A stretch of DNA of 31,449 nt from a virus (lineage: Duplodnaviria; Caudoviricetes), in the IMG/VR virus record IMGVR_UViG_3300027863_000121, positions 1-31,449 of that record; one strand, 5' to 3'. Shown here one piece after another: positions 2 through 31,167 of this stretch. Both the position numbers and the translations under genes were made by a program. Position 1 is the first letter of the stretch, and every line of letters starts with the position of its first letter. The notes under the pieces were generated by a model. That model had not been told where the DNA came from. It worked only from the letters and a program-made list of their open reading frames with translations, and did not search any database.

Positions 2-280
2 TTCGGCATCGAGGCTGGGCGAATGGACACTCAAGGCGTGGCTGAAACAGTGGTCGCCCGTTGCCGCTTCTACCGATGTTCGCAGGCGGGTATCAGCATC
101 CAAAACTGGAACTCCCTTGACTGGTTCATTTGGCATTGCGTTTTCGAAGACTGTCGTTTCGGTGTCACCAATGTCTTCGGTGCTGGTAACTTCCACATTT
201 ACGAGAGCATTTTCAGGCGGTCAAAGGAAGCGGATGCAAGCATGGGACATGCGGGCTACTTTTCCCTTCGTGGGAACATC
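2..280 (+). pseudogene. 5' part (open at window edge) of host gene interrupted by the prophage; probable right-handed parallel beta-helix / pectate lyase superfamily protein
   Basis: Frame is open from nt 2 (FGIEAGRMDTQ...SLRGNI) with beta-helix-like strings (CRFYRCSQAGISI, CVFEDCRFGV). It continues in frame at 31168 once the phage and one ACATC are removed. Confidence 0.8.
276..280 (+). repeat. Target-site duplication ACATC, left copy
   Basis: Identical to 31163-31167. Flanking bases differ on both sides, so the duplication is exactly 5 bp, as in Mu transposition. Confidence 0.92.
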
Positions 281-285
281 CGCAA

Positions 286-371
286 AATTGCAAAAATCGG
301 CGCAGGTGGGCGGCGCAATTGCAAAAATCGGCGGTGTTAAATTGCAAAAATCGGCGGGGATTTTTGCAATT
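286..371 (+). repeat. Left-end subterminal repeats, probable transposase binding sites
   Basis: AATTGCAAAAATCGGCG at 286-302, 317-333 and 340-356, plus an inverted partial copy GATTTTTGCAATT at 359-371. A related CAATTTTTGCAA lies at 31121-31132 near the other end. Confidence 0.8.
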
Positions 372-442
372 ATGTCGGCAACGCTATCGGGATTTGGCAA
401 GAAGTTCCGAAACGCACTTGGCAAGAGTTTATGAGAATTTTT

Positions 443-462
443 TGTCAAGGTGTGCCTTGACA
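443..462. promoter_or_regulatory. TGTCAAGG-N4-CCTTGACA palindrome (operator or hairpin)
   Basis: Perfect 8-bp inverted repeat. The same TGTCAA/TTGACA half-sites recur at 12249-12292. Confidence 0.4.
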
Positions 463-482
463 CTTTTGCGCCTATTTTCGCT

Positions 483-3400
483 TTACACCGCCTGCCGAAC
501 CATCACCCGCCCCAACTCCCGACCGTCCACTTGGAGCGTGACGGCGGTGCTCAAGTTGATGGACGGTCCGTAAACTGCTGCTCCAAGGGGGATGACCGCT
601 GGCGGACTGGCTTTCTTTTTGCCACCAATTCTGATGCCAAAGACTTTCAACACCTCTCCAACTGTGTGGGTGATGAATTTGCCAACGCCTTCTATGGCTT
701 CCGTTATAGGTCTCAATCCGCCAAATAACGCTAATCCAACTAAACCTAACTGGATGCTTTGCGGCAATTGCGCCAACACTTGCGCAAGCGCTGCTGAAAT
801 TTGGTTGGCAAGATTGCCCATCGCTTTCCTAATTGCTTCCGTTAAGGGTTTAAGCAATTCACTCGCTATTTGCTCTTGAATATCTCTAACGAACTCTTTC
901 ACTGCTTCTTGCAACTCTATCCTGCCACTAACTACTTCTGGCAACCGCCTCAGAAAATCTTCAGTGACTTTTCCCATACCTTCCACAAAAGGTGGCACGG
1001 TTTTTCGGATTTTTGCGGATTTTACCTCTAATTCCGCTATCTCTCGTTCCACTTCCAGCGCCTTTAAGATTGCCTCTGTTGCATCTCTTTCCATTGCAAC
1101 GACTCTTTGCTGAGCCTTCAACGCTTCTATCCGCTTCTCAATTGCTTCCAATTCCAGTTGGATTGCCTTTGGGTCATTGCGTTCCTTTGCGATTGCCGCA
1201 TGGAGTTCCGCCAGTTTGGCTTCCCTGTCCAACAGTTTCGCTCTTTCTTCCAACTCACGGCGCAAATCTTCTGTCGCTCGTTCCATCTCAGGCAAAGGTG
1301 CAACAGGTGATGGTGGAACTACGGGCAAACCTTCAAGTTCTGGCGCAACTCTTGCCATCTCCCGATATGCCTGACTTATCGCTTCAATTTCCCTCATATA
1401 CTCCTTTGCTTCCTCAAAAGCCCTCCTTTCCACATCCCCAAGGGGCTCAAGGGGCGGGAAAAGGGGCGTTGGCTGAGGTAGTCCTCGCAATTCCCTCTGT
1501 AGCAATTTCTCCCGCTCCTCTTCTATCTTTGCTTGCTCTGCTTCTTCAAGATAGCGCTGATAACGCAGTTCCTTTTGCCGTTCGGCGAGGTCTCTTAGTC
1601 TCGCTTGCAACTCTGCTGCTTCTCTCTCTATTTCCAAGATTTCCTCTTCAGCAATAGGGACGCCTTTTCGCCGAAAATCTTTCATTCGTTGCAAGACCCG
1701 CATCGTTTGTGCTAACTGCTCCATAGTGGCTATTCGTTCCACTCTCAAAATGTCTTCCTCTGGCAACCCTCTCGCCCTTGCTAAAGCGACTTTGATATCA
1801 CCCCTCAAGTGGAATCGCCTCAGCCATCCCGTCCAAATCCCTATCAAATGCCCCGCCAATTGCTCCATCGCTTCAACGGCTTTTTGCCCGCCTTTTTTAA
1901 TGCCTTCAGCGATCAACTGCGGGATTTTGATGCCCGCCTCAACGATGTCCTTAAGCGGTCCCACCTCGGGCGGGGATTTGGGCAAGCGTTTCCGAACTTC
2001 CTTTAGGGCTTCGTCCATCGCTTTGGCGGGCTTCTCTTTCCCCTGCCTCATCCCTTTCGCCATCTCTTCCATGACCTTTTGCCCAAACCTTGCAAACTCC
2101 GCCGTTTGCCGCTCCGCTCCAGCCAACGCTTCTCGCAACAACGAGGAGGTCTCAAAGCGCCTTCTAATCTGCTCCATCGCCTCTGGTCGGCTGGGTCTCT
2201 GTCGGCTTCTCACCCAGTCACCAAGTTCCGCCACCGTCGCCACTAATCCGCCAAAAACGCTTGCACGGACAAATCCTTGGGGAAGTTTCCCAATCAACCC
2301 AATCAGGATAGGAATTTTTTCAATAAGCCACTTGATGCCCGAAATGAGTTTGGAAAGGAAGTTCAAGATATTGTTCAAAGCCCCCGCCAAAACGCCCAAG
2401 CCAAAGGTTAAGATTGGCAAATTGACAGCCCAACTGATGATTTTCTTTTGGGTGTCGTCGGAAAGGTCGTTGAAGCGCTCCAAGGCGTCGTTGACTTTTT
2501 TGATCTTCTCCGCCAAATCCTCTCCCATTTGCTTGGCGACCTCCTGCAAGTTTTTCACAAACCGATCAAACTCCTTGCTCTCCTTGAGTTTGTCCATGAC
2601 TTCCTTGATGGCAACAGCAACGGTTTTCACCGCTGGCGCGACGGCGCTACCGAAAGTGATGAAGGCATCGGTGATGCTCAAAACCGCCTGTCGCAACTGA
2701 AATCCCGTCGTGCTGGCGATGGTTTTGAAGGCTCGATCCGTTGCCCCTGCTGAATGTGAGATTTCCTGAAGTATTTGCTTGAACCTATCCCCTTGCGAGC
2801 CCGTCAGCACCATGACAGCCCGAAGCCCTTCCACCGAACCAATCAGTTCTGCCAGTTGCTCTCTGGGGATGGCTTTGGAAAGCAGTTCCAAAGCGCCCGC
2901 CAACCCTTTGGCTTGCAGCAACGCCAACCCCGACGAATAGCCCAACTTTTGCAAGGCTTCCGTTAAGGCTTTGTTGGGGTTGAGCAAGTTTTGCAGCAAT
3001 TGACCGAGGCTTGACATCGCCATCTCCGTCTGGACGCCCGCCGCCGTCATCGCCGCGACGGCAGCCGAAAGTTCCTCAAAGGAGACGCCCGCTTGGGCTG
3101 CCGTTGAGGCAACCCGTCCAATTTGCGCCGCCAGTTCTGGGATGGTCGTTTTGCCCAACTCTACCGTCTTGAACATGATGTCCGAGACCCGTTTTGCTTG
3201 TTCGGTGCTGAGCCGATAAGCGTTCAAGACGGTGGTCACCGCATCGGCGGTGTGTTCCAAATCCGCCAGACCCGCCGTCGCCAGTTTCGCCGACACCCGC
3301 AAGACATCTATTGCCTTAGAGGCATCAACGCCAGCGGAGAGGATTTGATAGACCGCCCTCGCCGTCGTGTCAAAACTTTGGGCACTTTCAATGGCGACTT

Positions 3401-3776
3401 GCCGAATTTGCTTGCCCATTTGTTGCAGGTCTTGAGGGGCTAATCTGGCGATAGTTTGGATTTCCATCAGCCGCGTCTCAAAGTCCATGAAAGTTTTGGT
3501 AGCAGCGCCCAAAGTCCCGATGACCGAGCCCGTTAGAATCGTTCCCCATCGGCGCAAGGTCTGTCCTGTATTCTCCAAAACTTTCGCTGCCCCCGCAAAG
3601 CCACGCTGAAGGGTCTCCAAGCGCTGGGAAAGGGGAGCAAGAGCCGAGGTGGTTTGCCGAGAAATACTCCGAACGGATGCCCCCACATCGGCGACGGCTT
3701 GGCGGATGCCCGCAAGGGCTCTTTGAACTTGTTCGCTCCCTTCCGCACGAATTCTAATGGTCAGTTCCTCAGGCAT
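483..3776 (-). CDS. Tail tape measure protein (TP901-type core), 1097 aa
   Basis: Long helical Ala/Leu/Glu-rich protein with a TP901-like core (FMDFETRLMEIQTIA...VELGKTTIPELAAQIGRV) and typical C-terminal VDGRELGR motif. GAGGTG RBS. Confidence 0.92.
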   Translation of the reverse strand: MPEELTIRIRAEGSEQVQRALAGIRQAVADVGASVRSISRQTTSALAPLSQRLETLQRGFAGAAKVLENTGQTLRRWGTILTGSVIGTLGAATKTFMDFETRLMEIQTIARLAPQDLQQMGKQIRQVAIESAQSFDTTARAVYQILSAGVDASKAIDVLRVSAKLATAGLADLEHTADAVTTVLNAYRLSTEQAKRVSDIMFKTVELGKTTIPELAAQIGRVASTAAQAGVSFEELSAAVAAMTAAGVQTEMAMSSLGQLLQNLLNPNKALTEALQKLGYSSGLALLQAKGLAGALELLSKAIPREQLAELIGSVEGLRAVMVLTGSQGDRFKQILQEISHSAGATDRAFKTIASTTGFQLRQAVLSITDAFITFGSAVAPAVKTVAVAIKEVMDKLKESKEFDRFVKNLQEVAKQMGEDLAEKIKKVNDALERFNDLSDDTQKKIISWAVNLPILTFGLGVLAGALNNILNFLSKLISGIKWLIEKIPILIGLIGKLPQGFVRASVFGGLVATVAELGDWVRSRQRPSRPEAMEQIRRRFETSSLLREALAGAERQTAEFARFGQKVMEEMAKGMRQGKEKPAKAMDEALKEVRKRLPKSPPEVGPLKDIVEAGIKIPQLIAEGIKKGGQKAVEAMEQLAGHLIGIWTGWLRRFHLRGDIKVALARARGLPEEDILRVERIATMEQLAQTMRVLQRMKDFRRKGVPIAEEEILEIEREAAELQARLRDLAERQKELRYQRYLEEAEQAKIEEEREKLLQRELRGLPQPTPLFPPLEPLGDVERRAFEEAKEYMREIEAISQAYREMARVAPELEGLPVVPPSPVAPLPEMERATEDLRRELEERAKLLDREAKLAELHAAIAKERNDPKAIQLELEAIEKRIEALKAQQRVVAMERDATEAILKALEVEREIAELEVKSAKIRKTVPPFVEGMGKVTEDFLRRLPEVVSGRIELQEAVKEFVRDIQEQIASELLKPLTEAIRKAMGNLANQISAALAQVLAQLPQSIQLGLVGLALFGGLRPITEAIEGVGKFITHTVGEVLKVFGIRIGGKKKASPPAVIPLGAAVYGPSINLSTAVTLQVDGRELGRVMVRQAV

Positions 3777-4882: not shown

Positions 4883-4915
4883 TTTCATCCCTCCTTGTTG
4901 TTAACGGCAGGAAAT

Positions 4916-5053
4916 AGCGACTTGCGACTGGCGACTGGTAACGGCAGGAAATGGCGAATGGCGACTGGCGACTGGAAACGGCAAAAAGAACCAGTCGCTA
5001 ATCACCAGTCGCTGCCGTTTCACCAGTCGCTAATCGCTAATCGCCAGTCGCTA
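4916..5053 (+). repeat. ~140 bp palindromic repeat built from GCGACTG/CAGTCGC heptamers, copy 1
   Basis: Near-identical to 8369-8508 (inverted) and 18580-18755 (direct). Begins TAGCGAC and ends GTCGCTA. Confidence 0.9.
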
Positions 5054-6889
5054 CTTTGTTTTCGCTACGGTGTAATTTCTTTGCTGCTCCAAAATTTGCC
5101 TGACTAAGCCACGAAATGTGAGTTCCCTGTCGCCAGCCTTGATTTTTTGTGCGACAACTTCGCCAGCACGAACGGTCACCATGTTTTCAACGATGGGCAA
5201 GATGCTGATTTCTGCGATGCCGAAACGAAGCAGCCTCAGTTTGCCTGTCGGGTCAATCAAAACATCTTGCCCAACAACTGTGCCTTCAAAAACAATGTTG
5301 GGCGAAATAAGTGATTTCATTGCTGCAAAGCCGAGATTGCTCGGAAGGCTCAACAAGCCATAGCGGACGCCGTAATATGCCTCGCTCGTCGCTTTGTTCT
5401 CATCGCCTTGCAAAAACAGAATTCGCCCCAAAAGCCCAACATAAGGTGCTGGGTTGCCGGGTGGATATTTGTCAATGCTGACCGTAAGCCGGTAAGGTGG
5501 GTTGTTTGCGACGACGGTGAACTGCCACTCCTGCTGATAGTAGTAATCCCACAACTCTCCTTTTGTCCCCGCTGGCACGCCACTACCCAAAGTCCCATCC
5601 AAACTGTGCCAGATCCCTCGATCGAGATACAAGTTGAAGTTCGTCCCGCTCGGCTCAACCCTTGTGACCCTGAAGAAATTGCTTTGAGCAAGGAAGGTGT
5701 CAACTTCGCTCAAAAAATCATCATTGCTTCCGACCGGACGCAAAAGGTCGTTGCGACCAAGATAGCGGGAAAGGGAAGCAGCGTCAAGGTAAACTGTCAA
5801 GGGCGATGATGTTGAGCCAGTAATGCGAAAGCCAACTTTTGCCTTCGTTTGCGATGTGATGTTCCAAGTCCACTCATAGTAATTGAGCCCTGCTGCGATG
5901 CTGACGGCTGTGTTGAAAGTTGAGCCGATGAAGGCATTGATTGTCCCAACGGCTGCTGCCGAATAAGCCCAAATCCCCATCCGATAAGTTCCGGGCGCAA
6001 GTTCAATCTCAGAGCGGGTTCCGATGTCAACATAGCCGGCAGGGCTTTGCTGTGGGATGTAAACCCTCAAGACAGTCCCTTCCATGATGCCGATGATTCT
6101 CTCAGCGCCCAAATCGTAAACGCCCCTTCTTTCGACCGACCAACCGCTACCGCTCCCAACAATTTCCCAGCGCTCCGAGTTGTAGTCCTCAAAAGAGCCA
6201 TCTCCAAGCAAGTTTTTGAAAATTTCTGCGTTGGTTGGCGACAAAAGCAGACGGTTTTGAACTTGCGACGCGTCATATTCAATGCTCCAGTCAGCAAAAA
6301 AGTCAATGGGCAAAGTGACAAGATCATCGGAACGATACTGCAACTGTGGGATAATTCTATTTGTCCCGCTCTCTTTCTGCATCTTCAAAGCGACATCAAA
6401 GCCCATGTCAAGCAAAAACCTGTAAGCAGAGCCGAGATTTTGACCTCGCAGGTCAACTGAGTTTGTGCCCAAACTGTCGGTGACCGAAATTGAAGGTGTG
6501 ACAAGCCTTGACCAATGGACTCTTGCAACCTGACAGGCAGCCTTCCAAAATTGCCCAACAGACCAATTGCTGCTTTGGTAAAGGACGCAATCAACGGGCA
6601 AGTCAAGCAAAAACTCTGTCAAACCTTTAGCATCAATTTGCTGCTTGCCGTCGTGAGTGAACCTTTGCCTGACAATCTTTCCGAGCCAAACCACATTTTG
6701 GGCTTCGTCAACGATTTCAATTTCGTCGCCCAAACGCAAATCGTCAAAAGTAGGTCTTGGCAAAAACGCTTGCAAATTCCCGACCCAACCTGCGTGGCTT
6801 AGCGTGAATTGAAAATCAGCATCTTCAACAATCCGCTTTATCCCGTAGCCAAATTCGTAGGGCTTTCTGAAGATGAGCCTCAAATTCAC
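5051..6889 (-). CDS. Baseplate hub/Tal-like tail protein with internal carbohydrate-binding-like domain, 612 aa
   Basis: Hub-like N-terminus (GDEIEIVD..VVWLGKIVR) and CBM-like jelly-roll segment (NLLGDGSFE...W...GTYRMGIWA...VYLDAASL). Follows the Dit-like gene. Confidence 0.65.
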   Translation of the reverse strand: MNLRLIFRKPYEFGYGIKRIVEDADFQFTLSHAGWVGNLQAFLPRPTFDDLRLGDEIEIVDEAQNVVWLGKIVRQRFTHDGKQQIDAKGLTEFLLDLPVDCVLYQSSNWSVGQFWKAACQVARVHWSRLVTPSISVTDSLGTNSVDLRGQNLGSAYRFLLDMGFDVALKMQKESGTNRIIPQLQYRSDDLVTLPIDFFADWSIEYDASQVQNRLLLSPTNAEIFKNLLGDGSFEDYNSERWEIVGSGSGWSVERRGVYDLGAERIIGIMEGTVLRVYIPQQSPAGYVDIGTRSEIELAPGTYRMGIWAYSAAAVGTINAFIGSTFNTAVSIAAGLNYYEWTWNITSQTKAKVGFRITGSTSSPLTVYLDAASLSRYLGRNDLLRPVGSNDDFLSEVDTFLAQSNFFRVTRVEPSGTNFNLYLDRGIWHSLDGTLGSGVPAGTKGELWDYYYQQEWQFTVVANNPPYRLTVSIDKYPPGNPAPYVGLLGRILFLQGDENKATSEAYYGVRYGLLSLPSNLGFAAMKSLISPNIVFEGTVVGQDVLIDPTGKLRLLRFGIAEISILPIVENMVTVRAGEVVAQKIKAGDRELTFRGLVRQILEQQRNYTVAKTK

Positions 6890-8157: not shown

Positions 8158-8354
8158 CGACCTTTGTCAGCGACTGGCGATTGGCGACTGGCGACTTGTT
8201 GCTTTTCTTCGTCGTAGCGTTTGATTTGACCTGATGCGACCCGTTCCAACAATTCAATCCATTTCGCCGCTTTTTCGGGATCGCTTTCCTGTTCAAGTCT
8301 AGCAAGCAACAACGAAATAACCCTCTCAGTCAACGGAGTTTGTTGCTCCATCAC
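8154..8354 (-). CDS. Hypothetical 66-aa protein
   Basis: GGAGGTGA RBS and GTGA coupling to the Dit gene. The C-terminus is encoded by heptamer repeats (VASRQSPVA). Confidence 0.65.
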   Translation of the reverse strand: MMEQQTPLTERVISLLLARLEQESDPEKAAKWIELLERVASGQIKRYDEEKQQVASRQSPVADKGR

Positions 8355-8368
8355 CTTTCACCTCCGTG

Positions 8369-8508
8369 AGCGACTGGCGATTGGCGATTAGCGACTGGTG
8401 AAACGGCAGCGACTGGTGATTAGCGACTGGTTCTTTTTGCCGTTTCCCAGTCGCCAGTTGCCATTCGCCATTTCCTGCCGTTTTCCAGTCGCAAGTCGCC
8501 AGTCGCTA
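8369..8508 (-). repeat. ~140 bp heptamer-built palindromic repeat, copy 2 (inverted relative to copy 1)
   Basis: Reverse complement contains AACGGCAGGAAATGGCGAATGGC...AAACGGCAAAAAGAACCAGTCGCTAATCACCAGTCGCTGCCGTTTCACCAGTCGC as in copy 1. Confidence 0.9.
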
Positions 8509-8521
8509 TTCGCTGTAGTTA

Positions 8522-9559
8522 CTACGAGCCGCCAATTTGAGTGCCGGGATTGTAAGCGCTTGTTGAGTTGGTCAGGATAATTTGCAAGCCACGACCTAAA
8601 GACGAATCAAGCAACGCCTCAAAGGAAAGTTCCTGCTCAACGACTGCGTTCCTGCGGACGGGTTCTGAGATTTCGGTCCAGACAATCTTCGGGATTGAAA
8701 TTTCAAGTTGCTTGTCGGTTGCTGGTGCCCATTTGAGTTTCAGTGAAGTCGTTGGTGCAGTCGGGTCATTTTTGTGTTGGAGTGGATAGGTGGAAGCACC
8801 CGCTTGGTTCAGGAAAGCCTTAAGGAAGTTATCGTTCTCAAAGGTCAACCGAATCGTCCCGCGAACTCTCATTCCCGTCACTGGTTGATGCCCACGCGGG
8901 GAAACCACGCCACGAGCTGTCCATCGGAGTGCCCTGTCCATCGTGATTTCCAAATCAGCAGCGATGCATTGAGCGATAGCAGTTCCAATTGGAGTTTCAA
9001 CTGTAGCAAGGGCTTGAACGAATGGGTCGGCACTGTCAACGCCAACGCCCGCAGGAATGACAGTCCCTTCGTTGTTGAACACTGCAGCGTAAGTGCCAAT
9101 CAAGTCCAAGTCAAACTGCAACACTTCATCTCGTTCAGCATCAAAGCCGAGCCTTAACCGAGTTGCCGCTAAGCCGCCGAAGACTTCCTGCCTTGCGATG
9201 TCGTTGTAGGCGTGAACAACCGAAAGCCATCGCGATTGAGAAGCGGCGCCGTAGTTGAAGGTGTGGGTGTAGGGACCAGCTCCGCTGGTGGTCGGTGGGA
9301 CGCCAAGAGCGTGAAGGATGTAGCCGAAAGAGTTGGGTTGGACATCTCCCCGTAATCCGCCTTCAACCCAGACATGGGAAGTTAGAGCCCGTCGGGGCAT
9401 CAAAGAGCCAGTTCCCATGCCCGTAATAATTCTGTTGACGCGAACTCTAAGGTCGCTTTCAACGCCGTCAAGTTGGATTTGTGCTGCGACGGCAGCGTTC
9501 TCGTTGTTCGTGATGCCAACACCGATTTTAGTTAACAAGCCAACGACTTCTACTGGCAT
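8522..9559 (-). CDS. Major tail tube protein (~345 aa)
   Basis: Tube-like motifs (GAGPYTHTF, VRGTIRLTFEN, LEISIPKIVW, VEQELSFEA). No sheath gene is present, so the tail is non-contractile. Confidence 0.8.
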   Translation of the reverse strand: MPVEVVGLLTKIGVGITNNENAAVAAQIQLDGVESDLRVRVNRIITGMGTGSLMPRRALTSHVWVEGGLRGDVQPNSFGYILHALGVPPTTSGAGPYTHTFNYGAASQSRWLSVVHAYNDIARQEVFGGLAATRLRLGFDAERDEVLQFDLDLIGTYAAVFNNEGTVIPAGVGVDSADPFVQALATVETPIGTAIAQCIAADLEITMDRALRWTARGVVSPRGHQPVTGMRVRGTIRLTFENDNFLKAFLNQAGASTYPLQHKNDPTAPTTSLKLKWAPATDKQLEISIPKIVWTEISEPVRRNAVVEQELSFEALLDSSLGRGLQIILTNSTSAYNPGTQIGGS

Positions 9560-9780
9560 CAACTTTCACCTCCTTCGTTTTTTGTCCCTTGTCCCGTGTC
9601 CCCTGTCCCTTCGACGGGGACTAAAACTTCTGAGCCAACAAAATCGTCGCCAAAGATTTCCCTCGCTTTTTCAGCTGGGACGACATCGCCGGGATTTAGT
9701 TCGCCGAGCCCAATGATGGTGACTGGGCTCGTCCCGACATAGCGGAAGCCAATGATTGGCTGCGGCTTTTTAATTGGCAT
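9559..9780 (-). CDS. Hypothetical 73-aa protein
   Basis: GGAGGTGA RBS; translationally coupled on both sides. Confidence 0.65.
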   Translation of the reverse strand: MPIKKPQPIIGFRYVGTSPVTIIGLGELNPGDVVPAEKAREIFGDDFVGSEVLVPVEGTGDTGQGTKNEGGES

Positions 9781-10468
9781 CGTCCTTCACCTCCATGGCG
9801 GTTTTAAACCAACGCTCTAACTCAGTGTTGCCGATATGGACGGCAACAGCCTTTTCTTCGCCTTCACGAACTTTCCAGCCAACGAAATGCAAATCGTCAG
9901 GAAGCCAGACAAGTTGCCATTTGTCTTTGTATTTGTGGGCGAGAGTAACGAGAGCGGTTTCTTCGGGATAGTATTGCGATTTGTTCGTCAACATCTGCCA
10001 CTCGTCAATGTAGGCAAGGAATGCTTTGTTGGCGACAATCATACCCGTGCCGAAATAAAACTCCCACTCATCGCCGATCATGGCAAGGCGTTGAATTTCC
10101 CGAATGCGGTCCTCCGTCGCCAACTCGTCAAACTGGTCTTTCTCCCAAACCCGCGTGACGACCAAAGTGGGCTTCCCATTGTTTTTGATGCCCGAAAGAA
10201 ATTCCTTCAATCGCTTCACAAAACCATCCCGAAACTCAATGTCCACATCCACAAAGCAAGTCCATTCATCCTTTCGGGCAACGGTAAGCCCTAAGCCCAT
10301 CACCTTCGGTTTCAAACGCAACGCTTCCTCTCGATCCGCCTTCGTTTTCTCCAAAGTCAACAAAACATCATCATCGCACAGCTGTCGAAACAAAGCCCAG
10401 AGACACCGCTCAGCAGCAAACCTTTTTGCGCTGTCGATCGGATAAACGAGCATCGTCACGAAAATCAC
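9770..10468 (-). CDS. GT-A fold nucleotide-diphospho-sugar transferase-like protein
   Basis: Motif order K-P, hydrophobic strand + DxD (CFVDVD), FGTG (N/T-x-G), EETAL (DQxxL-like), LP, and C-terminal VH matches GT8/GT77/GT34-like enzymes. Confidence 0.6.
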   Translation of the reverse strand: MIFVTMLVYPIDSAKRFAAERCLWALFRQLCDDDVLLTLEKTKADREEALRLKPKVMGLGLTVARKDEWTCFVDVDIEFRDGFVKRLKEFLSGIKNNGKPTLVVTRVWEKDQFDELATEDRIREIQRLAMIGDEWEFYFGTGMIVANKAFLAYIDEWQMLTNKSQYYPEETALVTLAHKYKDKWQLVWLPDDLHFVGWKVREGEEKAVAVHIGNTELERWFKTAMEVKDDAN

Positions 10469-10584
10469 CTTCTCCGCCTCCTTTCCTTAAAGCGACTAAG
10501 CCTGTCAATCACAACCCACATCGCTACCCTTGCAGTGATGAAAGCAATAATGAGAAAAAGCAACACATAAAGGGCATCAAGCAT
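10465..10584 (-). CDS. 39-aa single-TM protein (not in ORF track)
   Basis: MLDALYVLLFLIIAFITARVAMWVVIDRLSRFKERRRRR. GGAGGT RBS; GTGA overlap with the next gene. Confidence 0.55.
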   Translation of the reverse strand: MLDALYVLLFLIIAFITARVAMWVVIDRLSRFKERRRRR

Positions 10585-10587
10585 GAA

Positions 10588-10764
10588 TTACACCTCCAAT
10601 TCCTCGCGACGAGAGACGCGGGACGAGGGGTGGGTGAAACGATGCATCATGTCGTTGAAGATGATTTTGCGTAACTTGCGCATCTGGAAGTGGGCGTAAG
10701 CGATTGTCAAGCCCAAGAAAATCCATGCCGCCATCTGCATCGCTTCTTTAAGTTCCATCGCCAT
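10588..10764 (-). CDS. ~57-aa small membrane protein (not in ORF track)
   Basis: MAMELKEAMQMAAWIFLGLTIAYAHFQMRKLRKIIF... fills the operon gap exactly. Confidence 0.5.
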   Translation of the reverse strand: MAMELKEAMQMAAWIFLGLTIAYAHFQMRKLRKIIFNDMMHRFTHPSSRVSRREELEV

Positions 10765-10939
10765 CACGCTCCAGCATGAGCATTAGCCGCTCAATCTTCT
10801 CGTCTATGCGAATCAAGGCGTTGACGATTTCCTGAACCGTCATGACCTTGTTGACGAAATACATGAGCCACAAAGCCACGACAATCGGAAAGCCCAACTC
10901 CTTGACGAACCCTGCGATTGAGTTCAGCCATTCGGTCAT
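10748..10939 (-). CDS. Holin-like membrane protein (YvrJ-like)
   Basis: ELGFPIVVALWLMYF TM motif followed by a coiled coil, within the lysis cassette. Confidence 0.6.
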   Translation of the reverse strand: MTEWLNSIAGFVKELGFPIVVALWLMYFVNKVMTVQEIVNALIRIDEKIERLMLMLERDGDGT

Positions 10940-10954
10940 CAAATCACCCCACAA

Positions 10955-10990
10955 TAGCGACTGGCGACTTGCGACTGGCGACTGGTGATT
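10955..10990 (+). repeat. Short GCGACTG heptamer array
   Basis: TAGCGACTGGCGACTTGCGACTGGCGACTGGTGATT between two lysis genes. Confidence 0.85.
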
Positions 10991-11237
10991 ACTTGATCAA
11001 CTGGACGGCAAGTTCAATGGCTAAGTTGATTGCTGATTCTTTGAGTTCCTTTCCACGCGCTATTGCTTCTGCCTTGATCATCTCAAAAGCCCGCTTCCGT
11101 TTCTCTTCGTTCGTCCAAGTTTCCATCTTCGCCGCTTCCTTGACTGCCAAGATAGCGACCTCGCTGAGTTCACCAAGCAAGTGTTCAAGCATCGCTTTTG
11201 CAAACGGTTTGAAGAAGCGTTTAACGAGCCATTTCAT
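10989..11237 (-). CDS. LL-H-type holin-like protein
   Basis: AVKEA...NEEKRKRA...AINLAIELAV pattern resembles the LL-H holin family. Directly downstream of the amidase. Confidence 0.55.
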   Translation of the reverse strand: MKWLVKRFFKPFAKAMLEHLLGELSEVAILAVKEAAKMETWTNEEKRKRAFEMIKAEAIARGKELKESAINLAIELAVQLIK

Positions 11238-11803
11238 CGCATCACGACCTCCTTTGTGCGAAGTTGCAGCGAAGCCGCCACGACCTTCGCCAGTTGTTCG
11301 CCGTGGTCGGCTTCATAGTCGCCATAAAAGCAACGAGCACCACGATCATCAGGCTGAGAAGTTTTGAATTTGTGCCCGATGTCCAAGCCGATGACGGCAT
11401 CAAAGGGAAGCCACTTGACCAAAGCATCGGCGATGGCTTCGCCAAATTTTCGGATGACTTGGACATCGTGGACGAGGTTGGCTTCTTCGGGATTGGTAAT
11501 AAAGCAAGGTTCCATGAGGATGGCAGGACAGTGATAGAAACGCAAAAATCCAGCCCTTGAGCCTTCAGCCTTCTTGACGCCCCTTGACTTTGTGCCCAAG
11601 ACGCTGGTGATGATGTGAAGGAGTTTTGCTGCGATGTAGTCGGCGTCGCCCTTACCGTTAGAGAAAACTTCGCTCCCATTGACTTTCGAGTTGTTGTGGG
11701 CGTTGAAATGAAAACTGATGACAAGCCGACAGTTTGCTTTTGATGCTTGCCTTTGCCGTTCATGATTTCCAACATAGTCGCCTTTGAGCCAGACAATCTT
11801 CAC
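11234..11803 (-). CDS. Endolysin, N-acetylmuramoyl-L-alanine amidase (Amidase_3), circularly permuted
   Basis: ISFHFNA (H32) and PAILMEPCFITN (E98) come first. The usual N-terminal LDxGH...GA...E block (H144, E164) is at the C-terminus. Confidence 0.85.
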   Translation of the reverse strand: MKIVWLKGDYVGNHERQRQASKANCRLVISFHFNAHNNSKVNGSEVFSNGKGDADYIAAKLLHIITSVLGTKSRGVKKAEGSRAGFLRFYHCPAILMEPCFITNPEEANLVHDVQVIRKFGEAIADALVKWLPFDAVIGLDIGHKFKTSQPDDRGARCFYGDYEADHGEQLAKVVAASLQLRTKEVVMR

Positions 11804-12216
11804 GATTGCTCACCTTCTTCCTCCATCAGGATTTGCTGGATTCGGGCGAACTTATCAGCAGAGACGAGGTCACGGAGGGCATCAAGGGCTGCTTTCGCTC
11901 GCTCTTCCCGCTCCCTTGCAAGTTCCAACTGCTTTCGCTTTTCTCGCTCGTAGCGGATGAGCAAATCAAGTCGTTTCAGTTCGTCAGCTTTCTCCGTTTG
12001 CAAGATCAAGTAGCGCTCCATCGCCCGAAGCATGTGTCGCTTGTGTCGATAGACAGTTTGGAAACTGACGCCCAACGATTGAGCGATTTCTTCGTAAGTC
12101 TTCCCAGCCTTCATCTGCTGCCAGATTTCTTCCTGCATATCAGCATCAAGCCGACAGAGCCGACACCTGCTGAAACTTTTAAGCATTGGCAAAAGTTCCC
12201 AAGCATCTTTGGGCAC
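11800..12216 (-). CDS. Terminase small subunit-like HTH protein (Mu gp27/DUF3486-like)
   Basis: CRLCRL...GKTYEEIAQSLGVSFQTVYRHKRH HTH followed by a coiled coil. Confidence 0.6.
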   Translation of the reverse strand: MPKDAWELLPMLKSFSRCRLCRLDADMQEEIWQQMKAGKTYEEIAQSLGVSFQTVYRHKRHMLRAMERYLILQTEKADELKRLDLLIRYEREKRKQLELAREREERAKAALDALRDLVSADKFARIQQILMEEEGEQS

Positions 12217-12248
12217 TTTACATCACCGACGACGAAAGTGGCACAAAA

Positions 12249-12292
12249 TTTGTCAAAGTGGTTTGTCAAATTTGTCAAACTACTTTGACAAA
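12249..12292. promoter_or_regulatory. Divergent late control region with four TTTGTCAAA boxes
   Basis: TTTGTCAAA at 12249-12257, 12262-12270 and 12271-12279, and inverted at 12284-12292, between two divergent late operons. Confidence 0.6.
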
Positions 12293-12320
12293 GAGGCGGG
12301 TATATTTGGAGGTGGTGATC

Positions 12321-12566
12321 TTGCTTGTGGCAGTTAAAAGCCTGTATCGGATTCGTGCCGAATTGGAGCAGGAGGGGATTTTCATCACCCCCGACTGGCT
12401 CTATCACATCGCAAGACGCCATTTCCGCTTGCGTGTTTGCAAAGAGACTTACCAGCGGGAGGTTTTCGGCGTAGATGAGGACGATGCTGAGCGCCTTAAG
12501 GAACTTGTTCGGCAAGCGGTTCAGCGCTCTAAGCGTCGTAGACCCGGCATTGAAAAAGGCACTTAA
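12321..12566 (+). CDS. Small basic protein, possibly DNA-binding
   Basis: GGAGG RBS at 12308-12312 and TTG start; first gene of the plus-strand head operon. Confidence 0.6.
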   Translation: MLVAVKSLYRIRAELEQEGIFITPDWLYHIARRHFRLRVCKETYQREVFGVDEDDAERLKELVRQAVQRSKRRRPGIEKGT

Positions 12567-15557: not shown

Positions 15558-15568
15558 GGTGATGAAAA

Positions 15569-15976: not shown

Positions 15977-15994
15977 CACGGAGGTGAGTGAACA

Positions 15995-16921: not shown

Positions 16922-17050
16922 ACGGCAGCGACTGGTGATTAGCGAATAGCGACTGGCAAAACGACAGCGATTAGTGACTTGCGAATAGCGACTGGTCAAA
17001 CGGCAAAAAGAACCAGTCGCAAGTCGCCAGTCGCCATTTCCCGCCGTTTT
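16921..17050. repeat. Mosaic copy of the heptamer-built repeat
   Basis: Contains modules in both orientations (AACGGCAGCGACTGGTGATTAGCGA; AACGGCAAAAAGAACCAGTCGC; CCAGTCGCCATTTCCCGCCGTT). Confidence 0.85.
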
Positions 17051-17130
17051 TGGCGTCTGATGGGCTTTTTGGGCGAGGGGGGTATTCCGATATAGGGGTG
17101 CCCCCTACGAGACGATTGTAGGGCAAAAGT

Positions 17131-17177
17131 TTGCGCAAAATTGAGCACGCTGGTATACTAATGTGCTCAATTTTGCG
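17131..17177 (+). promoter_or_regulatory. Putative sigma70 promoter of the portal operon inside a perfect 15-bp inverted repeat
   Basis: TTGCGC (17131-36), 17 bp, extended TGg-TATACT (17154-59). IR arms at 17134-17148 and 17163-17177. Confidence 0.65.
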
Positions 17178-17278
17178 AGAGACCCTTTCGGACGCCGTCG
17201 GGACGGAAAGGGACAGGGGACAAGGGACAGGGGGCATGTCAAGTTAGTATACCAACTTGCACATTGGAGGCGACAAAA

Positions 17279-19324: not shown

Positions 19325-19342
19325 CAAGTAGCGAATGGAGGG

Positions 19343-19861
19343 ATGGCTATGGAGCCGGGCATTGCCATTGAAATCGTGAATGACCAACTGGTCGTTCACT
19401 TCATTGACTCTTACAGCCACCGCCTTCAAAACTTTGAACCTGTTTGGAGGCAGATTGCGAAAGACTTGATGGAACTTGAGGAGCAAATTTTTGCGACGCA
19501 AGGGAGCGTCATCGGCAAACCTTGGGCACCCTTGTCGCCCAAAACAATCCGACAAAAACAACGGAAAGGCTTCCCGCTTGAACCGCTTGTTAGGACTGGA
19601 AGGTTGAGAGCATCCTTGACCGATGAAACGAGCGGCGAGATGATTCTGGACATTGAGCCTTTAGGTTTGACTTTCGGTTCGGCAAGACCAGTTGATCGTG
19701 GCGATTGGTGGCTTGCTCCCATTCATCATTTTGGCGCTCCGAGACGAAACATCCCTGCAAGAGCATTGATGCCTGACAATCAGTTTCTTGTCGGACGCTA
19801 TCGAGAACGATGGCAGGATTACTTTCTCAATTACCTGTCCGAGGAGAAAGAGTTCCTTTAA
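19343..19861 (+). CDS. Virion morphogenesis / tail completion protein (Mu gpG-like)
   Basis: WAPLSPKT...LVRTGRLRASL...APIHHFG...IPARALM motifs. Confidence 0.85.
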   Translation: MAMEPGIAIEIVNDQLVVHFIDSYSHRLQNFEPVWRQIAKDLMELEEQIFATQGSVIGKPWAPLSPKTIRQKQRKGFPLEPLVRTGRLRASLTDETSGEMILDIEPLGLTFGSARPVDRGDWWLAPIHHFGAPRRNIPARALMPDNQFLVGRYRERWQDYFLNYLSEEKEFL

Positions 19862-19876
19862 CAAGGAGGTGCTTCG

Positions 19877-20305
19877 ATGCCACGCTATCACAGCCTTTCC
19901 GATGTCCAAAGTCGCTTGCCTTCGTCCATCGCCACCATTGATGCCTTGACAGAACCCAATGCCGATCAAGTGACGGCATGGATGGACGAGGTTGAGGCTT
20001 TCGTTGAAGGTCAATTGGCGACCCGATATCAAGTGCCCATCACTGGAACGCAAAGTCTCTTGATTGTCCGGGACATTTGCGCCGATTTGACAGCCTACCG
20101 AGTTTGGCAGTTTAAGGCGATGGGCATTGACGACCCCGAATTTCGCAACCAAGCGGAAGTGCTAAGGCAGCGGGCGATGGAAAAACTTCAAGCAATTTTG
20201 CAAGGCACAATGGTCTTGCCCGACCAAGCCGAAGCACCGTCTTCATCAACGCCAACAGGAACTTTCCCCGAACCGATTTTTGAGAGGGACAGAATTCAAT
20301 GGTGA
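19877..20305 (+). CDS. Head-tail adaptor (Mu gp36/DUF1320-like)
   Basis: Y.SLSDV...VEGQLATRYQVP...ICADLTAYRV...AMEKLQAILQG motif. Confidence 0.82.
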   Translation: MPRYHSLSDVQSRLPSSIATIDALTEPNADQVTAWMDEVEAFVEGQLATRYQVPITGTQSLLIVRDICADLTAYRVWQFKAMGIDDPEFRNQAEVLRQRAMEKLQAILQGTMVLPDQAEAPSSSTPTGTFPEPIFERDRIQW

Positions 20306-20325
20306 AGCGTAATGCATAAGACAAG

Positions 20326-20799
20326 GTGAGCAGGATGGCGAAGACGAGGGAGTTGATTGAGCAGATTATCAACTATTTGGCGATGCGGCTGCCAAATGCC
20401 GTTGCGGCGGCAGGGTTGCCGACGCCGACAGGGATTGAATATGGTGATTTGGTGTTGGTGAGCCCGACAAATTTGCCCCGACTTGCCGTTGACATCAATC
20501 GCTACCCGCAACAGCAGGCGACCCTCGGTCCGAGCGCCCAACTGCGTCAGCGGATGGAAGGAGAAGTTTGGGTTGCAGTGGCAGGGCAAGACAAGGAAGA
20601 GACGGCGAAACTTTTGCACGATTACGCCGACATCGTTGCGGAAGTTTTAGCGGGCGACATTCAGGCTGGCGGCTTGGCACTGATCTTGCAAGTGACGGAA
20701 GTAGATTTTTCGCCGACCGTTAGATGGCAAAACGCATTGGTTCGTGTGGCAAGGATTCGGTTTCAAGCGGTCACGCAAACGAGGCGAGTAGCGAGTTAG
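20326..20799 (+). CDS. Tail terminator-like protein (Mu gp37-like)
   Basis: Size, position after the adaptor, and alpha/beta pattern (NLPRLAV...VWVAV...ARIRFQA). Confidence 0.6.
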   Translation: MSRMAKTRELIEQIINYLAMRLPNAVAAAGLPTPTGIEYGDLVLVSPTNLPRLAVDINRYPQQQATLGPSAQLRQRMEGEVWVAVAGQDKEETAKLLHDYADIVAEVLAGDIQAGGLALILQVTEVDFSPTVRWQNALVRVARIRFQAVTQTRRVAS

Positions 20800-26727: not shown

Positions 26728-26735
26728 CCTGAGCC

Positions 26736-27470
26736 TCACCACTCAACGACAAGGTTCTTCGTCACAAACCGCAAATCCTGAACCGTAAGTTCGGTCGTCG
26801 GTTTCTTCCTTGCCGCCGCGTAGGCAAACAAGTGAGAAACCACTCGTTGGAGCCGCCTGAAGTTGCCCTGCGTAAGGTCATAGATGGCTTGCAGGAGTTC
26901 AGCGTTGAAATCAGCACCGTGAAGCAATTCCAAGTCAGGGAACGAAAGCGGCGGGACGACGAAACGCATCGCAACACGATCCCTCGCTTGCGGGTAACGG
27001 GAAAGCAACTTGACAATTTCGCCTTCGTGACCGATGAGCAAGATTGTCGCCCCGGTGAAGTCATGAAGCCTCCGAAAGACATCCAACGCCTTGCCTGTCA
27101 GCCACTGTGCTTCGTCAAGGAAAATTGTTCGTGGTGCATTGCCGTTGCCCGCCCACAACTCTAAAGCCTCTAATGCGTCCCACAACGATGCAGGCTGCCG
27201 ACCAGTTATTTCCGTCACGATTGTCCTGAAGAACCTGCTGGGCGATTTCTCCAAGATGACACGCTCAACGACTGTAATGAACGGGATGTTGTGTTTGCGG
27301 GCAAAGGACAATGCCCCGAAAGTTTTCCCGACACCCGGCTCACCTTCCAAAACTGCCATGCACCTTGAGCCGACGACTTCCCTCAAAAATGCCCAAGTCG
27401 CCTTGTAGGGTTGCGTTTCCCGCAACTTTGCTTCATCATAAGTTACTGGATTGACCATCAACCGACGCAT
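26736..27470 (-). CDS. MuB-like AAA+ transposition ATPase
   Basis: Walker A GEPGVGKT, Walker B IFLDEAQ, LLIGH, arginine finger DRV, GNFRRL. AAGGAGG RBS before ATG 27470. Confidence 0.92.
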   Translation of the reverse strand: MRRLMVNPVTYDEAKLRETQPYKATWAFLREVVGSRCMAVLEGEPGVGKTFGALSFARKHNIPFITVVERVILEKSPSRFFRTIVTEITGRQPASLWDALEALELWAGNGNAPRTIFLDEAQWLTGKALDVFRRLHDFTGATILLIGHEGEIVKLLSRYPQARDRVAMRFVVPPLSFPDLELLHGADFNAELLQAIYDLTQGNFRRLQRVVSHLFAYAAARKKPTTELTVQDLRFVTKNLVVEW

Positions 27471-29280
27471 GGCTGTTCGCCTCCTTCTCCTCATCGTTTT
27501 GTATCCACCAGAACCCCGCAAAGGGGTTCTCCTCTTCCCGCCTCTTTCTCAGCACTTCTTCAATCTCCTTCCTTTGTTGCTCAGCGAATATGTGCAAAAC
27601 TTCCATTTGCTCCTCCCAACTCATCTCGGGCTCTTCCTCCTCAAGGTCAACGGGCTTTGCTGGTCGGTAAGGCAGGAAGGTTTTGGGGTTAGCAAGGAAG
27701 GCATTGACTTGTGCGACAAACTCATCACGATACTTCAAAATCACATCGTCAACCCATTCGCCCTCTTTCTTTGCCTGCTCAACAATCTGCTTTATCCGCC
27801 TCACCATCGCCCGCTTGAATTCGGTCCAACATTGGGCTGTTTCGCTGTCTTCAATGTATCGCCAGCATGGGACTTCAATCGCTCTCGCCGCCTCTAAATC
27901 GCCACCCATCGGTTCGCCATTTAGGAAAACCCACGCACGAAAGTCGGGAGCGACATAAAGAGTGACCTTCCGTGTGTCGCCAAATGCAGCCATAATCGCT
28001 GTCCCATAGTTCCACCAACGATATCGACCCCAGAAAATCTCGCCGTCAGTTCGGGGCTTTCGTGGGACAGATGGCAGCAACATGACCCGAAGCATTTCCT
28101 CATTGAGTTCCGTCCTGTTGGCTTTCGCTTGAAAGAGTCCCAATCGTCGCCCATTCCAATGCGGACAAACTTGAGCGTTCCACTTTCGTGCCCAATCTTT
28201 CAGCAATTGGTTGAATTCTCGAACCGATAAAATCCGTCGCCCTGAGTCATCTACCCAATAAACCTCACCCGTTCTGGGATCAATCTCCTTGCGCAATTTC
28301 CCGCTTTCCGTAGTCGGCGGTCGGCTGTCGGGACGATTGAGCGAACCCAAGTAGCCGGGCAAGTAGGCTTCAAGTTGGCTATGGATGAACTGGAACAAGG
28401 CTTCAACTTGCGGCTTAGAGCCGGGATCGTAAGGGCGGGCATGTTGGACGCTTATCCGTAATTTTTTGCAAACCTTCTCAAGCGCCTGATTGTTTTCAAC
28501 CTTGCCCCAGTCAACAACAAGCACCTTCGGTTTCGCCTGAATGCCTGTCAGGTCACCCAAAAGGGCATCGGCGAACAATGAGTTGAATGCGGCGGCATCA
28601 AAGAAGGGGCTGAATTTGCCTTCAACCTGCCTCTTAACGGCAGCGATCGCCAAAACTGTCATCGTCCCTTGATCAATGAAAGCACCAATCTCATAACGAG
28701 CCACTTCTCCCTTCCACTCATCCCGCATCAACTGGATGTCGCTCTTTGACCTATCCGCCAACCAAACCATGCCCGGCGGAACGAGCGAAGTGTGGGAAGC
28801 CCGAAAGCGCTTGCGGAGATGCAGTTTGCCTTCCTTGTAAGCAGCTGGAAGCGACTGCAAAAAGCGAAGGGCAGTGTAGTAGGAAACGGTTTCATGTGGG
28901 CAATTATCGGACGATTGGCATTCAGGTGAGCATTCAAACTCTTGCAAATAAAACTGCCACAAAACCTTCGCAGGAAGATGCGCCGTCGCAGGATTGGACG
29001 CAAGGCGAGTTAAAACCGCCTTGTGACTCGGCAACAATTCCGAAGGTCGCCCCCGATCCAAATCATCCCTGCCATTACCATTGACAGATTTGAGCCATTT
29101 CAATATCGCAGGATGTGTTACTCTAATTGCTTTTGCCAGCGGTCTCAGTTCCCAACCGCTTTTCAATGCTTCCAACACAACTTTACCTCGCTCAACCACC
29201 GGCGCTCCCTCAGAAATTAGCGACTGCAACATCGCTACATATCTCCAGTCACCGCTCTTTCCTTTCCTCGCCATCTCCAT
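27436..29280 (-). CDS. MuA-like DDE transposase, 614 aa
   Basis: WLAD...D, VVDWG and PYDPGSKPQVE catalytic motifs; N-terminal HTH plus GRP motif; adjacent to the MuB-like gene. Confidence 0.9.
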   Translation of the reverse strand: MEMARKGKSGDWRYVAMLQSLISEGAPVVERGKVVLEALKSGWELRPLAKAIRVTHPAILKWLKSVNGNGRDDLDRGRPSELLPSHKAVLTRLASNPATAHLPAKVLWQFYLQEFECSPECQSSDNCPHETVSYYTALRFLQSLPAAYKEGKLHLRKRFRASHTSLVPPGMVWLADRSKSDIQLMRDEWKGEVARYEIGAFIDQGTMTVLAIAAVKRQVEGKFSPFFDAAAFNSLFADALLGDLTGIQAKPKVLVVDWGKVENNQALEKVCKKLRISVQHARPYDPGSKPQVEALFQFIHSQLEAYLPGYLGSLNRPDSRPPTTESGKLRKEIDPRTGEVYWVDDSGRRILSVREFNQLLKDWARKWNAQVCPHWNGRRLGLFQAKANRTELNEEMLRVMLLPSVPRKPRTDGEIFWGRYRWWNYGTAIMAAFGDTRKVTLYVAPDFRAWVFLNGEPMGGDLEAARAIEVPCWRYIEDSETAQCWTEFKRAMVRRIKQIVEQAKKEGEWVDDVILKYRDEFVAQVNAFLANPKTFLPYRPAKPVDLEEEEPEMSWEEQMEVLHIFAEQQRKEIEEVLRKRREEENPFAGFWWIQNDEEKEANSHASVDGQSSNL

Positions 29281-29512
29281 CGCCCCCGTTCACGAGTTCC
29301 AAAAGTTCGGGGAAGATGCGAACAAGTTTGAGAGTGTTCAAAACCGAAGGGGCACTTCTGCCTTTTTCCCACGCATTGACAGTGAGCCAACTCACTCCCA
29401 ATGCTTTTGCCAGCCGATATTTCGTCCATCCCCTTTTCAACCTCGCCGCCTTCAGTGCTTCATGGAAGCCTACTTTCCTTGCGACTTCCCGAAGCCTCAT
29501 GACCGTCGTCAC
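29249..29512 (-). CDS. Cro/Ner-like XRE HTH regulator
   Basis: LKAARLKRGWTKYRLAKALGVSWLTVNAWEKGRSAP; divergent from the repressor. Confidence 0.88.
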   Translation of the reverse strand: MTTVMRLREVARKVGFHEALKAARLKRGWTKYRLAKALGVSWLTVNAWEKGRSAPSVLNTLKLVRIFPELLELVNGGDGDGEERKER

Positions 29513-29545
29513 CTCTTATGCATGATTACATGCTCAGCGCTATGC

Positions 29546-29574: not shown

Positions 29575-29589
29575 GACTTGTGCCATAGT
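29561..29589 (+). promoter_or_regulatory. Repressor promoter overlapping the early promoter
   Basis: TTGCGC (29561-66), 17 bp, TGc-CATAGT (29584-89). Confidence 0.5.
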
Positions 29590-29641
29590 CAAAATCACGG
29601 ATTTTCCCGCCTGTTTTGGGCAATTTGAGAGGTGAACGAAA

Positions 29642-30268
29642 ATGAAGGATGGCTTCGTGGGTCAAAAGATCAAAGCGCTCCGTCAAGCCAGAGGTTGGTC
29701 GCAATATCGGCTCGCCAAAATAACAGGAATCCCACATCAGATGATCTCAGCATGGGAATCAGGGAAACAAAACCCGTCAGCCAAGCACCTTACCAAACTC
29801 GCTGCTGCCTTTGGGATACCTGTTGACGCCTTGCTTTATAGCCGTGACGCAAGGGTAGAAGATGGTAAGCCCATTTTGCGCCTACCCATTGTCTTGCGGG
29901 TTTCGGCAGGCAGCGGCAACGGCGGTCCTATTGTCCTTGAAGAAGCGGGAACGATTGAAGTCACCATAGAAGAAGCGATGGCTGCCGATGCTGCTATTGA
30001 AGTCAGCGGTGAAAGCATGTTGCCGACCTTAGAACCCGGCGACATTTGTGGCATCCGTTGGCAGGATTATCCTCCCGCTCACGGCAAACTTGTCGTTGCC
30101 TGCATTGACGACATAGACAAGCCAATTATCAAGCGTTACATTGACAAAGGAACTTATTTCGTCCTTCGTTCTGATAATCGCAAATTTGGAGATTACTCGT
30201 CCCGTGAGCACCAAATCCGCATCATTGGCAAGGTTGTTTGGATGAAGCGATGGTATGAAAGGCGTTAA
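29642..30268 (+). CDS. CI/LexA-like repressor (XRE HTH + S24 autopeptidase)
   Basis: N-terminal HTH, VSAG Ala-Gly cleavage site, SGESM serine and IKR lysine. Confidence 0.93.
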   Translation: MKDGFVGQKIKALRQARGWSQYRLAKITGIPHQMISAWESGKQNPSAKHLTKLAAAFGIPVDALLYSRDARVEDGKPILRLPIVLRVSAGSGNGGPIVLEEAGTIEVTIEEAMAADAAIEVSGESMLPTLEPGDICGIRWQDYPPAHGKLVVACIDDIDKPIIKRYIDKGTYFVLRSDNRKFGDYSSREHQIRIIGKVVWMKRWYERR

Positions 30269-30280
30269 GGGGGGATTTTG

Positions 30281-30865
30281 ATGGGACAACAAAATCCACA
30301 GCCATCAGCTCTGCGTGGATGCATTGCTTTGCTCCTCATCATTTTTGCGGTCTGGTGGTGTCTCTTCCGTCAACCATCAACCTACGAAGAGCCTAAATCA
30401 ACAACGCCACCAACTTCATCCCTTCACCCCAATGAACTCAAGCGCCATCGCCAAACTTTTGTTGACTTCCAATCAACCATTGTCATATACCGAGCCCGAT
30501 ACAATGGCTGCGTTTCCACTTGGCAGAAAATTTTCAATGACCTTTCTCGTCACCGCATTTCAGCATTACAGGCTTACGAACGCCTTCAAGCCCTGCAAAA
30601 AGCCGTTGACCTATTGCGCTGGTCATCATGGGAAATCCCCGAATCGCTCCCTAAGGATGTCTATGACCTGCTGAAACAAGCCGAGAACGATTACAGCCTT
30701 GCCGCAAAGGCTTTCTATGAAGCCATCGGGTTTGCGATGGAGTTTTTGGACACGGGCTCAGCAAACGCCTACACAAAAGCCAAAGAGCGCCTTCGGTGGG
30801 CGAACTCTCACATCCTTGAAGCCGACCTTGCCATCGCCAAAGCCAAAAAGAAGTTGGGTTTCTAA
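30281..30865 (+). CDS. Membrane-anchored helical protein co-transcribed with the repressor
   Basis: Single N-terminal TM (CIALLLIIFAVWWCLF), Pro/Thr linker, helical domain. Confidence 0.75.
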   Translation: MGQQNPQPSALRGCIALLLIIFAVWWCLFRQPSTYEEPKSTTPPTSSLHPNELKRHRQTFVDFQSTIVIYRARYNGCVSTWQKIFNDLSRHRISALQAYERLQALQKAVDLLRWSSWEIPESLPKDVYDLLKQAENDYSLAAKAFYEAIGFAMEFLDTGSANAYTKAKERLRWANSHILEADLAIAKAKKKLGF

Positions 30866-30939
30866 TGACTTGCCAAATCATTGCTAACCTTGTCCAGACC
30901 CAACGGTTGTATATTCCAAAACTGTCAAGGGGAACGGTG

Positions 30940-31048
30940 ATTTTGGTGACCAAAAGGGGGTCACCAAAATTCGCTTCAGATAGGTCACCAAAATCAGGTC
31001 ACCAAAACGCTCCAAAATGTCCGATAATTTTTCAAAGGTCACCAAAAT
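30940..31048. repeat. Right-end GGTCACCAAAA(T) repeats
   Basis: Direct copies at 30959, 30983, 30997 and 31037; inverted copy at 30940-30951. Confidence 0.85.
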
Positions 31049-31162
31049 CCGAGCCGACACAAAACACCCTAAAAACGAGCCAAAACACCCTCAAAATTCC
31101 ATCCCAACCTCACCAACTGTCAATTTTTGCAACCGAATTTCAATTCCGAATGCAAATGAGCG

Positions 31163-31167
31163 ACATC
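31163..31167 (+). repeat. Target-site duplication ACATC, right copy
   Basis: Matches 276-280. Confidence 0.92.

Follow-up and report, generated by a model that had tools for sequence, protein, structure and literature searches.

Location and boundaries of the prophage

The stretch of DNA analyzed here (the window; all 31,449 nucleotides of IMG/VR record IMGVR_UViG_3300027863_000121) carries a 30,882-bp Mu-like prophage (bp 281–31162) that lies between two plus-strand copies of the target duplication ACATC (bp 276–280 and 31163–31167) and interrupts a host gene whose 5′ and 3′ parts, both on the plus strand, occupy bp 2–280 and 31163–31449, respectively. When intact, this gene encodes a 738-amino-acid pectate-lyase-like β-helix protein. 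The first letters of the prophage are CGCAAAATTGCA (from bp 281) and the last are TGCAAATGAGCG (to bp 31162); it thus has 5′-CG...CG-3′ termini. It belongs to a family of Mu-like prophages from hot-spring Armatimonadota; of the 20 runs listed, 19 are metagenomes from hot springs, and the named relatives of its transposase come from Armatimonadota, one of them labelled Candidatus Fervidibacter.

An earlier note on this DNA had drawn the same boundaries from the 5-bp duplication and from the restored host frame, and had proposed comparison with an empty allele as a check. Removal of the prophage in silico does leave a host frame without a stop codon, but a stop-free frame is also produced by 4 of the 16 repeats (of at least 5 bases) across the two junction zones; the frame test alone is therefore weak, and for this reason 24 genomes from the host class were searched at the protein level for empty alleles. 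Eleven loci matched, and the insertion site is uninterrupted in ten of them (the eleventh stops short of the site). Empty allele L040, with identities of 97.9% and 98.6% to the two flanks, has the sequence GGGA ACATC TCGCTC, in which ACATC occurs once; it agrees with the earlier reconstruction and fixes both prophage ends and the 5-bp duplication. In the empty allele the duplicated sequence is flanked by host bases A and T, which assigns the terminal C and G to the phage. The empty site is also found on contigs of runs X1, X2, X3, X8, and X9, of which X1 is possibly the window's own source.

Terminal sequences of the prophage and its relatives

The tail-side (“S”) terminus, CGCAAAATTGCA (bp 281–292, plus strand), has the form C-N6-TTGCA, and its transferred 3′ end on the minus strand should be ...GCG. 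Three direct plus-strand repeats of AAATTGCAAAAATCGGCG (bp 285–302, 316–333, and 339–356) and an inverted TTTTGCAA near bp 361–370 lie at this end, and the repeats in this segment (bp 285–370) are likely transposase-binding sites. The repressor-side (“c”) terminus (bp 31124–31162, minus strand) reads CGCTCATTTGCA and has a second TTGCAAAAA box 23 bp inward. Between the last open reading frame (ORF) and this end is a cluster of GGTCACC/GGTGACC palindromic repeats (bp 30959–31049), present in GGTAACC or GTTAACC versions in L028–L030, which are possibly operator or enhancer sites.

The repressor-side end could be read at 16 of 26 metagenome loci, at one of four genome loci, and on one further genome contig; removal of three duplicates gave 15 distinct insertions, the window's own included. 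In all 15, the passage from host to phage sequence falls at the same base, the host DNA being unrelated, and the phage sequence opens with C-N6-TTGCA. Ten of these ends start with CG and five with CA (3′ TG), and a contig of run X8 adds one that starts with CC. Over 17 ends, the flanking host base varies (C in 8, G in 6, and T in 3) and position +1 is invariably C, whereas positions +2 to +6 vary. Among the tail-side ends, those of the window and L252 start with CG, that of L027 starts with CA when read in a 7-base register, and contigs of runs X2 and X9 join the window sequence from bp 281, so their tail-side ends start with C. When junctions of both kinds are taken together, C is the first base in 21 of 22 (the X3 junction that differs is discussed below) and T in none, and the C start extends to elements whose transposase is 52% identical (L029 and L030).

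The earlier note had described the ends as CG-3′ in place of TG...CA, had suggested aligning the prophage ends that go with homologous transposases, and had regarded TG...CA sister prophages as grounds for abandoning the idea. In the alignment just described no such sister was found, and the departure from TG...CA is family-wide; the conserved part, however, is the last base alone. Since the second base varies (CG, CA, or CC), the rule is a terminal G-3′ rather than the dinucleotide CG. The junctions support the terminal G as a heritable trait of the family, and the next-to-last base is free; the linker and catalytic motifs of CG-type and CA-type elements show no visible difference. The feature is thus confirmed as real and family-wide, and it is sharper than first stated: a terminal G, a free second base, and an NNWNN target (below).

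Some individual copies deserve mention. The L027 element (8959–18407, also in G002) has decayed to 9,449 bp, in which both ends, the repressor, the tape measure gene, and a truncated transposase survive; the host gene that it hit is intact in relatives. The site of the L007 insertion (1–124) belongs to a host repeat family, of which G010 has 45 matches. An X3 contig with a depth of 259 ends one base beyond bp 31162, and one from X2 behaves alike, as would be expected if several different flanks follow; such contig stops are no proof of activity.

Target sites

The third base outside the phage end is A or T at all 19 independent sites (p ∼6e-7 at the 47% AT of the flanks). This pattern was recognized post hoc but holds up under a generous correction; it fits a symmetric 5-bp target, NNWNN (W is A or T), and supports the 5-bp register. 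The Mu target consensus, in contrast, has C/G in the middle. A second duplication, GGTAA, emerges when the c end of L183 is paired with the S end of the X3 junction; the two come from different data sets and lie in the same PfpI-like gene, with the X3 flank reading LVREAAQKGK in frame with empty PfpI-like alleles and L183 continuing the same gene. The target base that adjoins the phage end is never A at the 19 sites (C at 8, G at 7, and T at 4), and the base preceding it is G at 10 of the 19.

The transposase

The product of bp 27436–29280 (minus strand) is a 614-amino-acid DDE transposase (phrog_310, E 1e-26) with a TnsB/MuA/IstA-like fold, and the neighboring minus-strand gene (bp 26736–27521) encodes a MuB-like AAA ATPase (PF13401, AAA_22; phrog_296, E 6e-27). 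The catalytic residues D176, D257, and E293 of the transposase are invariant in the 19 aligned family transposases and have the D-35-E spacing. The best folds in the PDB for a structural model of the protein (mean predicted local distance difference test score, pLDDT, 72) are ShTnsB (E 2e-13), Tn7 TnsB, the Mu transpososome (1e-9), and IstA, with 4fcy and 1bcm among the matches. A viral structure library gave a phage transposase as best match, followed by retroviral integrases, and the Atlas gave Mu-transpos_C/rve clusters at 0.95–0.96. The fold matches place the enzyme in a group whose ends are normally TG...CA. An IS21 or IS481 insertion sequence was considered and rejected; the NCBIfam matches are weak in all 19 members (41 bits against a cut-off of 160 and 28 against 224, respectively), and a full virion module is present.

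The assignment to the MuA family made in the earlier note is thus well founded, but its “altered end chemistry” is not borne out: the DDE triad, the fold, and the 5-bp stagger are all ordinary, which makes a change of recognition likelier than a change of chemistry. The note had also singled out the second catalytic motif as atypical (DWG rather than DNG). DWG, at D257, is indeed invariant in the 19 family proteins and uncommon elsewhere, but the position is variable. A profile search gave 149 more distant proteins, 141 of which align at both D257 and E293; these have DHG (49), DNG (42), DRG (23), DWG (7, some of which may be near kin of the prophage family), or other motifs (20), and the motif is DNT in MuA and DPG in B3. 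The residue after the catalytic glutamate (E+1) is more distinctive than DWG; it is R in 112 of the 141 and invariably A or G among the 19 family members. In the N-terminal DNA-binding region of P0001 (residues 101–129), H101, C117, C121, C127, and H129 are invariant and possibly form a metal-binding cluster.

Proposed recognition of the terminal base

It is probable, from the comparison of ends and transposases, that the terminal base after which this TnsB/MuA-fold enzyme cuts and joins is G and not A, and that its chemistry is unchanged while its pocket has been re-shaped to accommodate a C:G pair. Taking the Mu mechanism as outlined in the available portions of PMC3145075, together with TnsB, as the model, transposase tetramers would bind the TTGCA(AAAA) repeats at the ends, the terminal base pair would be opened and the 3′ ends nicked, and these 3′ ends would be joined 5 bp apart into a target brought by the AAA ATPase, with replicative growth of the phage. 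Phosphoryl transfer would be of the ordinary DDE kind, and what has changed would be the pocket for the opened terminal pair (C:G, not T:A). In the accessible parts of a study of PseTnsB, the DBD2 helix and the linker hold a splayed terminal pair, dT1 stacking on a linker histidine and dA-1 being read by the DBD2 C-terminal helix, and other TnsBs engage the terminal pair differently (bioRxiv 10.64898/2026.05.05.722991). Candidate sites for the pocket here are the helix and linker at residues 147–170 and the catalytic helix, which has A/G at E+1 in place of the common R.

Several observations weigh against this reading. Only six tail-side ends were read, and both ends lie on one contig only twice, in the window and in the decayed L027. 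The L027 duplication (ACATG/CCATG) matches at four of five bases, and an alternative reading of its tail-side end, GGCAAAATT, gives a shorter duplication. The empty alleles of L009, L023, and L252 also continue with C, so that each of these junctions alone is ambiguous by one base, and that of X9 is possibly ambiguous by two. For four junctions the evidence is a loose end of a single contig. The pLDDT of the transposase model is below 50 at residues 147–164. The X3 tail-side end starts with GG (3′ end CC), and it is abundant, with a contig depth of 153 compared to 355 for the host gene in that run; either mutation in a trapped copy or tolerance may account for it. Lastly, PseTnsB from which the residue reading dA-1 has been removed (Q199A) is still functional, according to the text available (bioRxiv 10.64898/2026.05.05.722991), so that a strict base-reading pocket is not assured.

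The last two points, along with the second possible GG reading in L027 and the free second base, are also what might be seen if the transposase had lost most of its terminal-base preference, with the G descending from a single ancestor and retained under weak selection or because it belongs to the adjoining binding site, and other bases working as well. This, the main rival reading, seems unlikely, although not negligibly so, as C is retained at +1 in all 17 ends in spite of variable positions +2 to +6 and transposases that range from 52 to 100% identity, and a single mutated end would be expected of a trapped, defective copy. That the terminal G is misassigned, the true cut being displaced inward or outward by one base or the duplication having a length other than 5 bp, is very improbable: the three empty alleles that continue with C and the possible 4-bp CATG or 3-bp ATG duplication of L027 point that way, but neither terminal base of the window can be derived from its empty allele, the same holds for the repressor-side ends of L027 and L183 and for L020 (judged against an 83% orthologue), and A or T at −3 in all 19 sites is as a symmetric 5-bp target predicts. 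Mutation of TG...CA ends after this one insertion, or a 5-bp repeat that is a site-specific recombination core, can be dismissed almost entirely, given the lack of any T start in 22 junctions, the 19 different target sites, and the absence of a tyrosine or serine integrase among the 35 of the window's 150 listed ORFs that the domain and family scans took in.

One may go further, tentatively and with rather less than even confidence, and propose that this heat-dwelling phage lineage has switched the base that is all but invariant across the MuA/TnsB/retroviral-integrase superfamily: its transposase would require G-3′ (a C:G pair), be indifferent to the next base, and refuse Mu-type CA ends. It would then be a Mu system that is orthogonal, probably heat-stable, and directed to NNWNN targets. 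The switch may have been possible because a G:C pair at the terminus is easily opened in the heat of a hot spring, the easier opening being our guess. CA, TA, CG, and TG are all pyrimidine-purine steps, and the flexibility of such steps has been proposed to matter at Mu ends. The family alters the reactive terminal base itself and offers natural variants at the next base, so end and residue swaps against MuA or TnsB could directly probe the role of the terminal pair. As its transposase likely reads a different last letter, it is a natural test case for why the terminal A is normally fixed. A hot-spring transposase with its own end rule could also serve as a tool (its heat stability is hypothetical), and prophage searches that demand TG...CA ends would miss or mis-delimit such phages.

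Relationship to other transposable elements

The element resembles Mu-like phages in having a MuA-type DDE transposase with an adjoining MuB-type ATPase, Mu-type head genes with a tail module, a 5-bp target duplication, and insertions at 19 distinct unrelated targets; it departs from them in its termini and in its size, 30.9 kb as against the ∼36–39 kb given for Mu-like phages in the available text of PMC8705779. With Mu (AF083977) and B3 (AF232233) it shares a repressor, a Cro/Ner-like gene, the DDE transposase, and the AAA ATPase near one end, as well as Mu-type portal, protease, gp36, and S genes and repeated binding boxes at both ends, and with Mu it also shares the 5-bp duplication. The left end of Mu and both ends of B3 are of the TG...CA type, unlike the C...G ends here; the family transposase profile has no significant sequence match to MuA or B3 TnpA, and the head module, in contrast to those of Mu and B3, is oriented opposite to the early and tail genes.

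The accessible portions of PMC8705779 present TG-CA as a conserved feature of every Mu- and B3-like phage known up to that time and report, among 74 complete prophages, 28 Leptospira TA-TA prophages, which are treated as transposable phages despite lacking TG...CA. These are the nearest precedent. They too are a whole clade with other ends and an outwardly standard DDE transposase, but they make 6-bp duplications and retain the terminal A, both 3′ ends finishing in A where the present family has G.

The closest solved folds, those of Tn7-like TnsB, IS21 IstA, and IS481 transposases, have the same D-35-E spacing; as far as the sources available go, their ends are TGT/TG...CA, and the enzyme described here differs also in serving a tailed phage. 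In the wider superfamily, elements can end in C or T, as IS6 (GG...CC) and Polinton (AG...CT) do. The existence of non-TGCA ends in plant long terminal repeat retrotransposons, which are not phages, indicates that integrase-superfamily enzymes can use other terminal bases, although no motif named in the available part of that report ends in G (PMC5659011). Likewise, the accessible portions of PMC10122671, PMC1475752, PMC7761591, and bioRxiv 10.1101/2022.08.05.502904 describe no G-terminated ends, the parts available of the literature matched by one search do not mention Fervidibacter, and no terminal-G transposable phage appears in titles and abstract openings of the open literature, a body that leaves most subscription journals and supplements outside. 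A transposable phage with a terminal G is thus likely, but not proven, to be new.

Other genes and features

The early region at the c end contains, in addition to the transposase and ATPase genes, a minus-strand gene for an HTH (helix-turn-helix) regulator with a putative Cro/Ner-like role (bp 29249–29512; PF01381) and a plus-strand gene for a CI-like repressor with HTH and S24 peptidase domains (bp 29642–30268; family scans). The accessory ORF that follows the repressor (bp 30278–30865) has no family match and is replaced or absent in L007, L023, and L183. GemA and Mor-type genes, a feature of Mu-like transposable phages, found no match among the ORFs scanned, with small or divergent ORFs only partly covered.

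The tail genes are on the minus strand and include those for the tail tube protein (bp 8522–9562; PF18906) and the tail tape measure protein (bp 483–3776; PF10145, phrog_991), the latter being the last gene before the S end. Lysis functions are represented by a minus-strand pair (bp 10989–11803), a holin-like ORF (bp 10989–11237; phrog_2609, a weak match) and an amidase endolysin (bp 11234–11803; PF01520).

The head module (bp 12475–20799) lies on the strand opposite the early and tail genes. It comprises, on the plus strand, the terminase large subunit gene (bp 12475–14304; phrog_675, E 3e-79), genes for a Mu-like protease I, a cement/scaffold protein, and the major head protein (bp 14253–16921; PF10123, PF09956, and phrog_1005), and the Mu-type portal, S-like virion morphogenesis, and gp36-like genes (bp 17264–20305; PF06074, PF05069, and PF07030). 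Relatives such as L246 have the same gene order, so this orientation is not a one-off inversion.

Arrays like repetitive extragenic palindromes, built of a 7-base GCGACTG-type unit in both orientations, are present at bp 4900–5057, 8160–8522, 10947–10988, 13384–13429, 16918–17050, and 18565–18771. One array of this type lies inside the portal ORF (bp 17264–19324), where relatives show alignment gaps.

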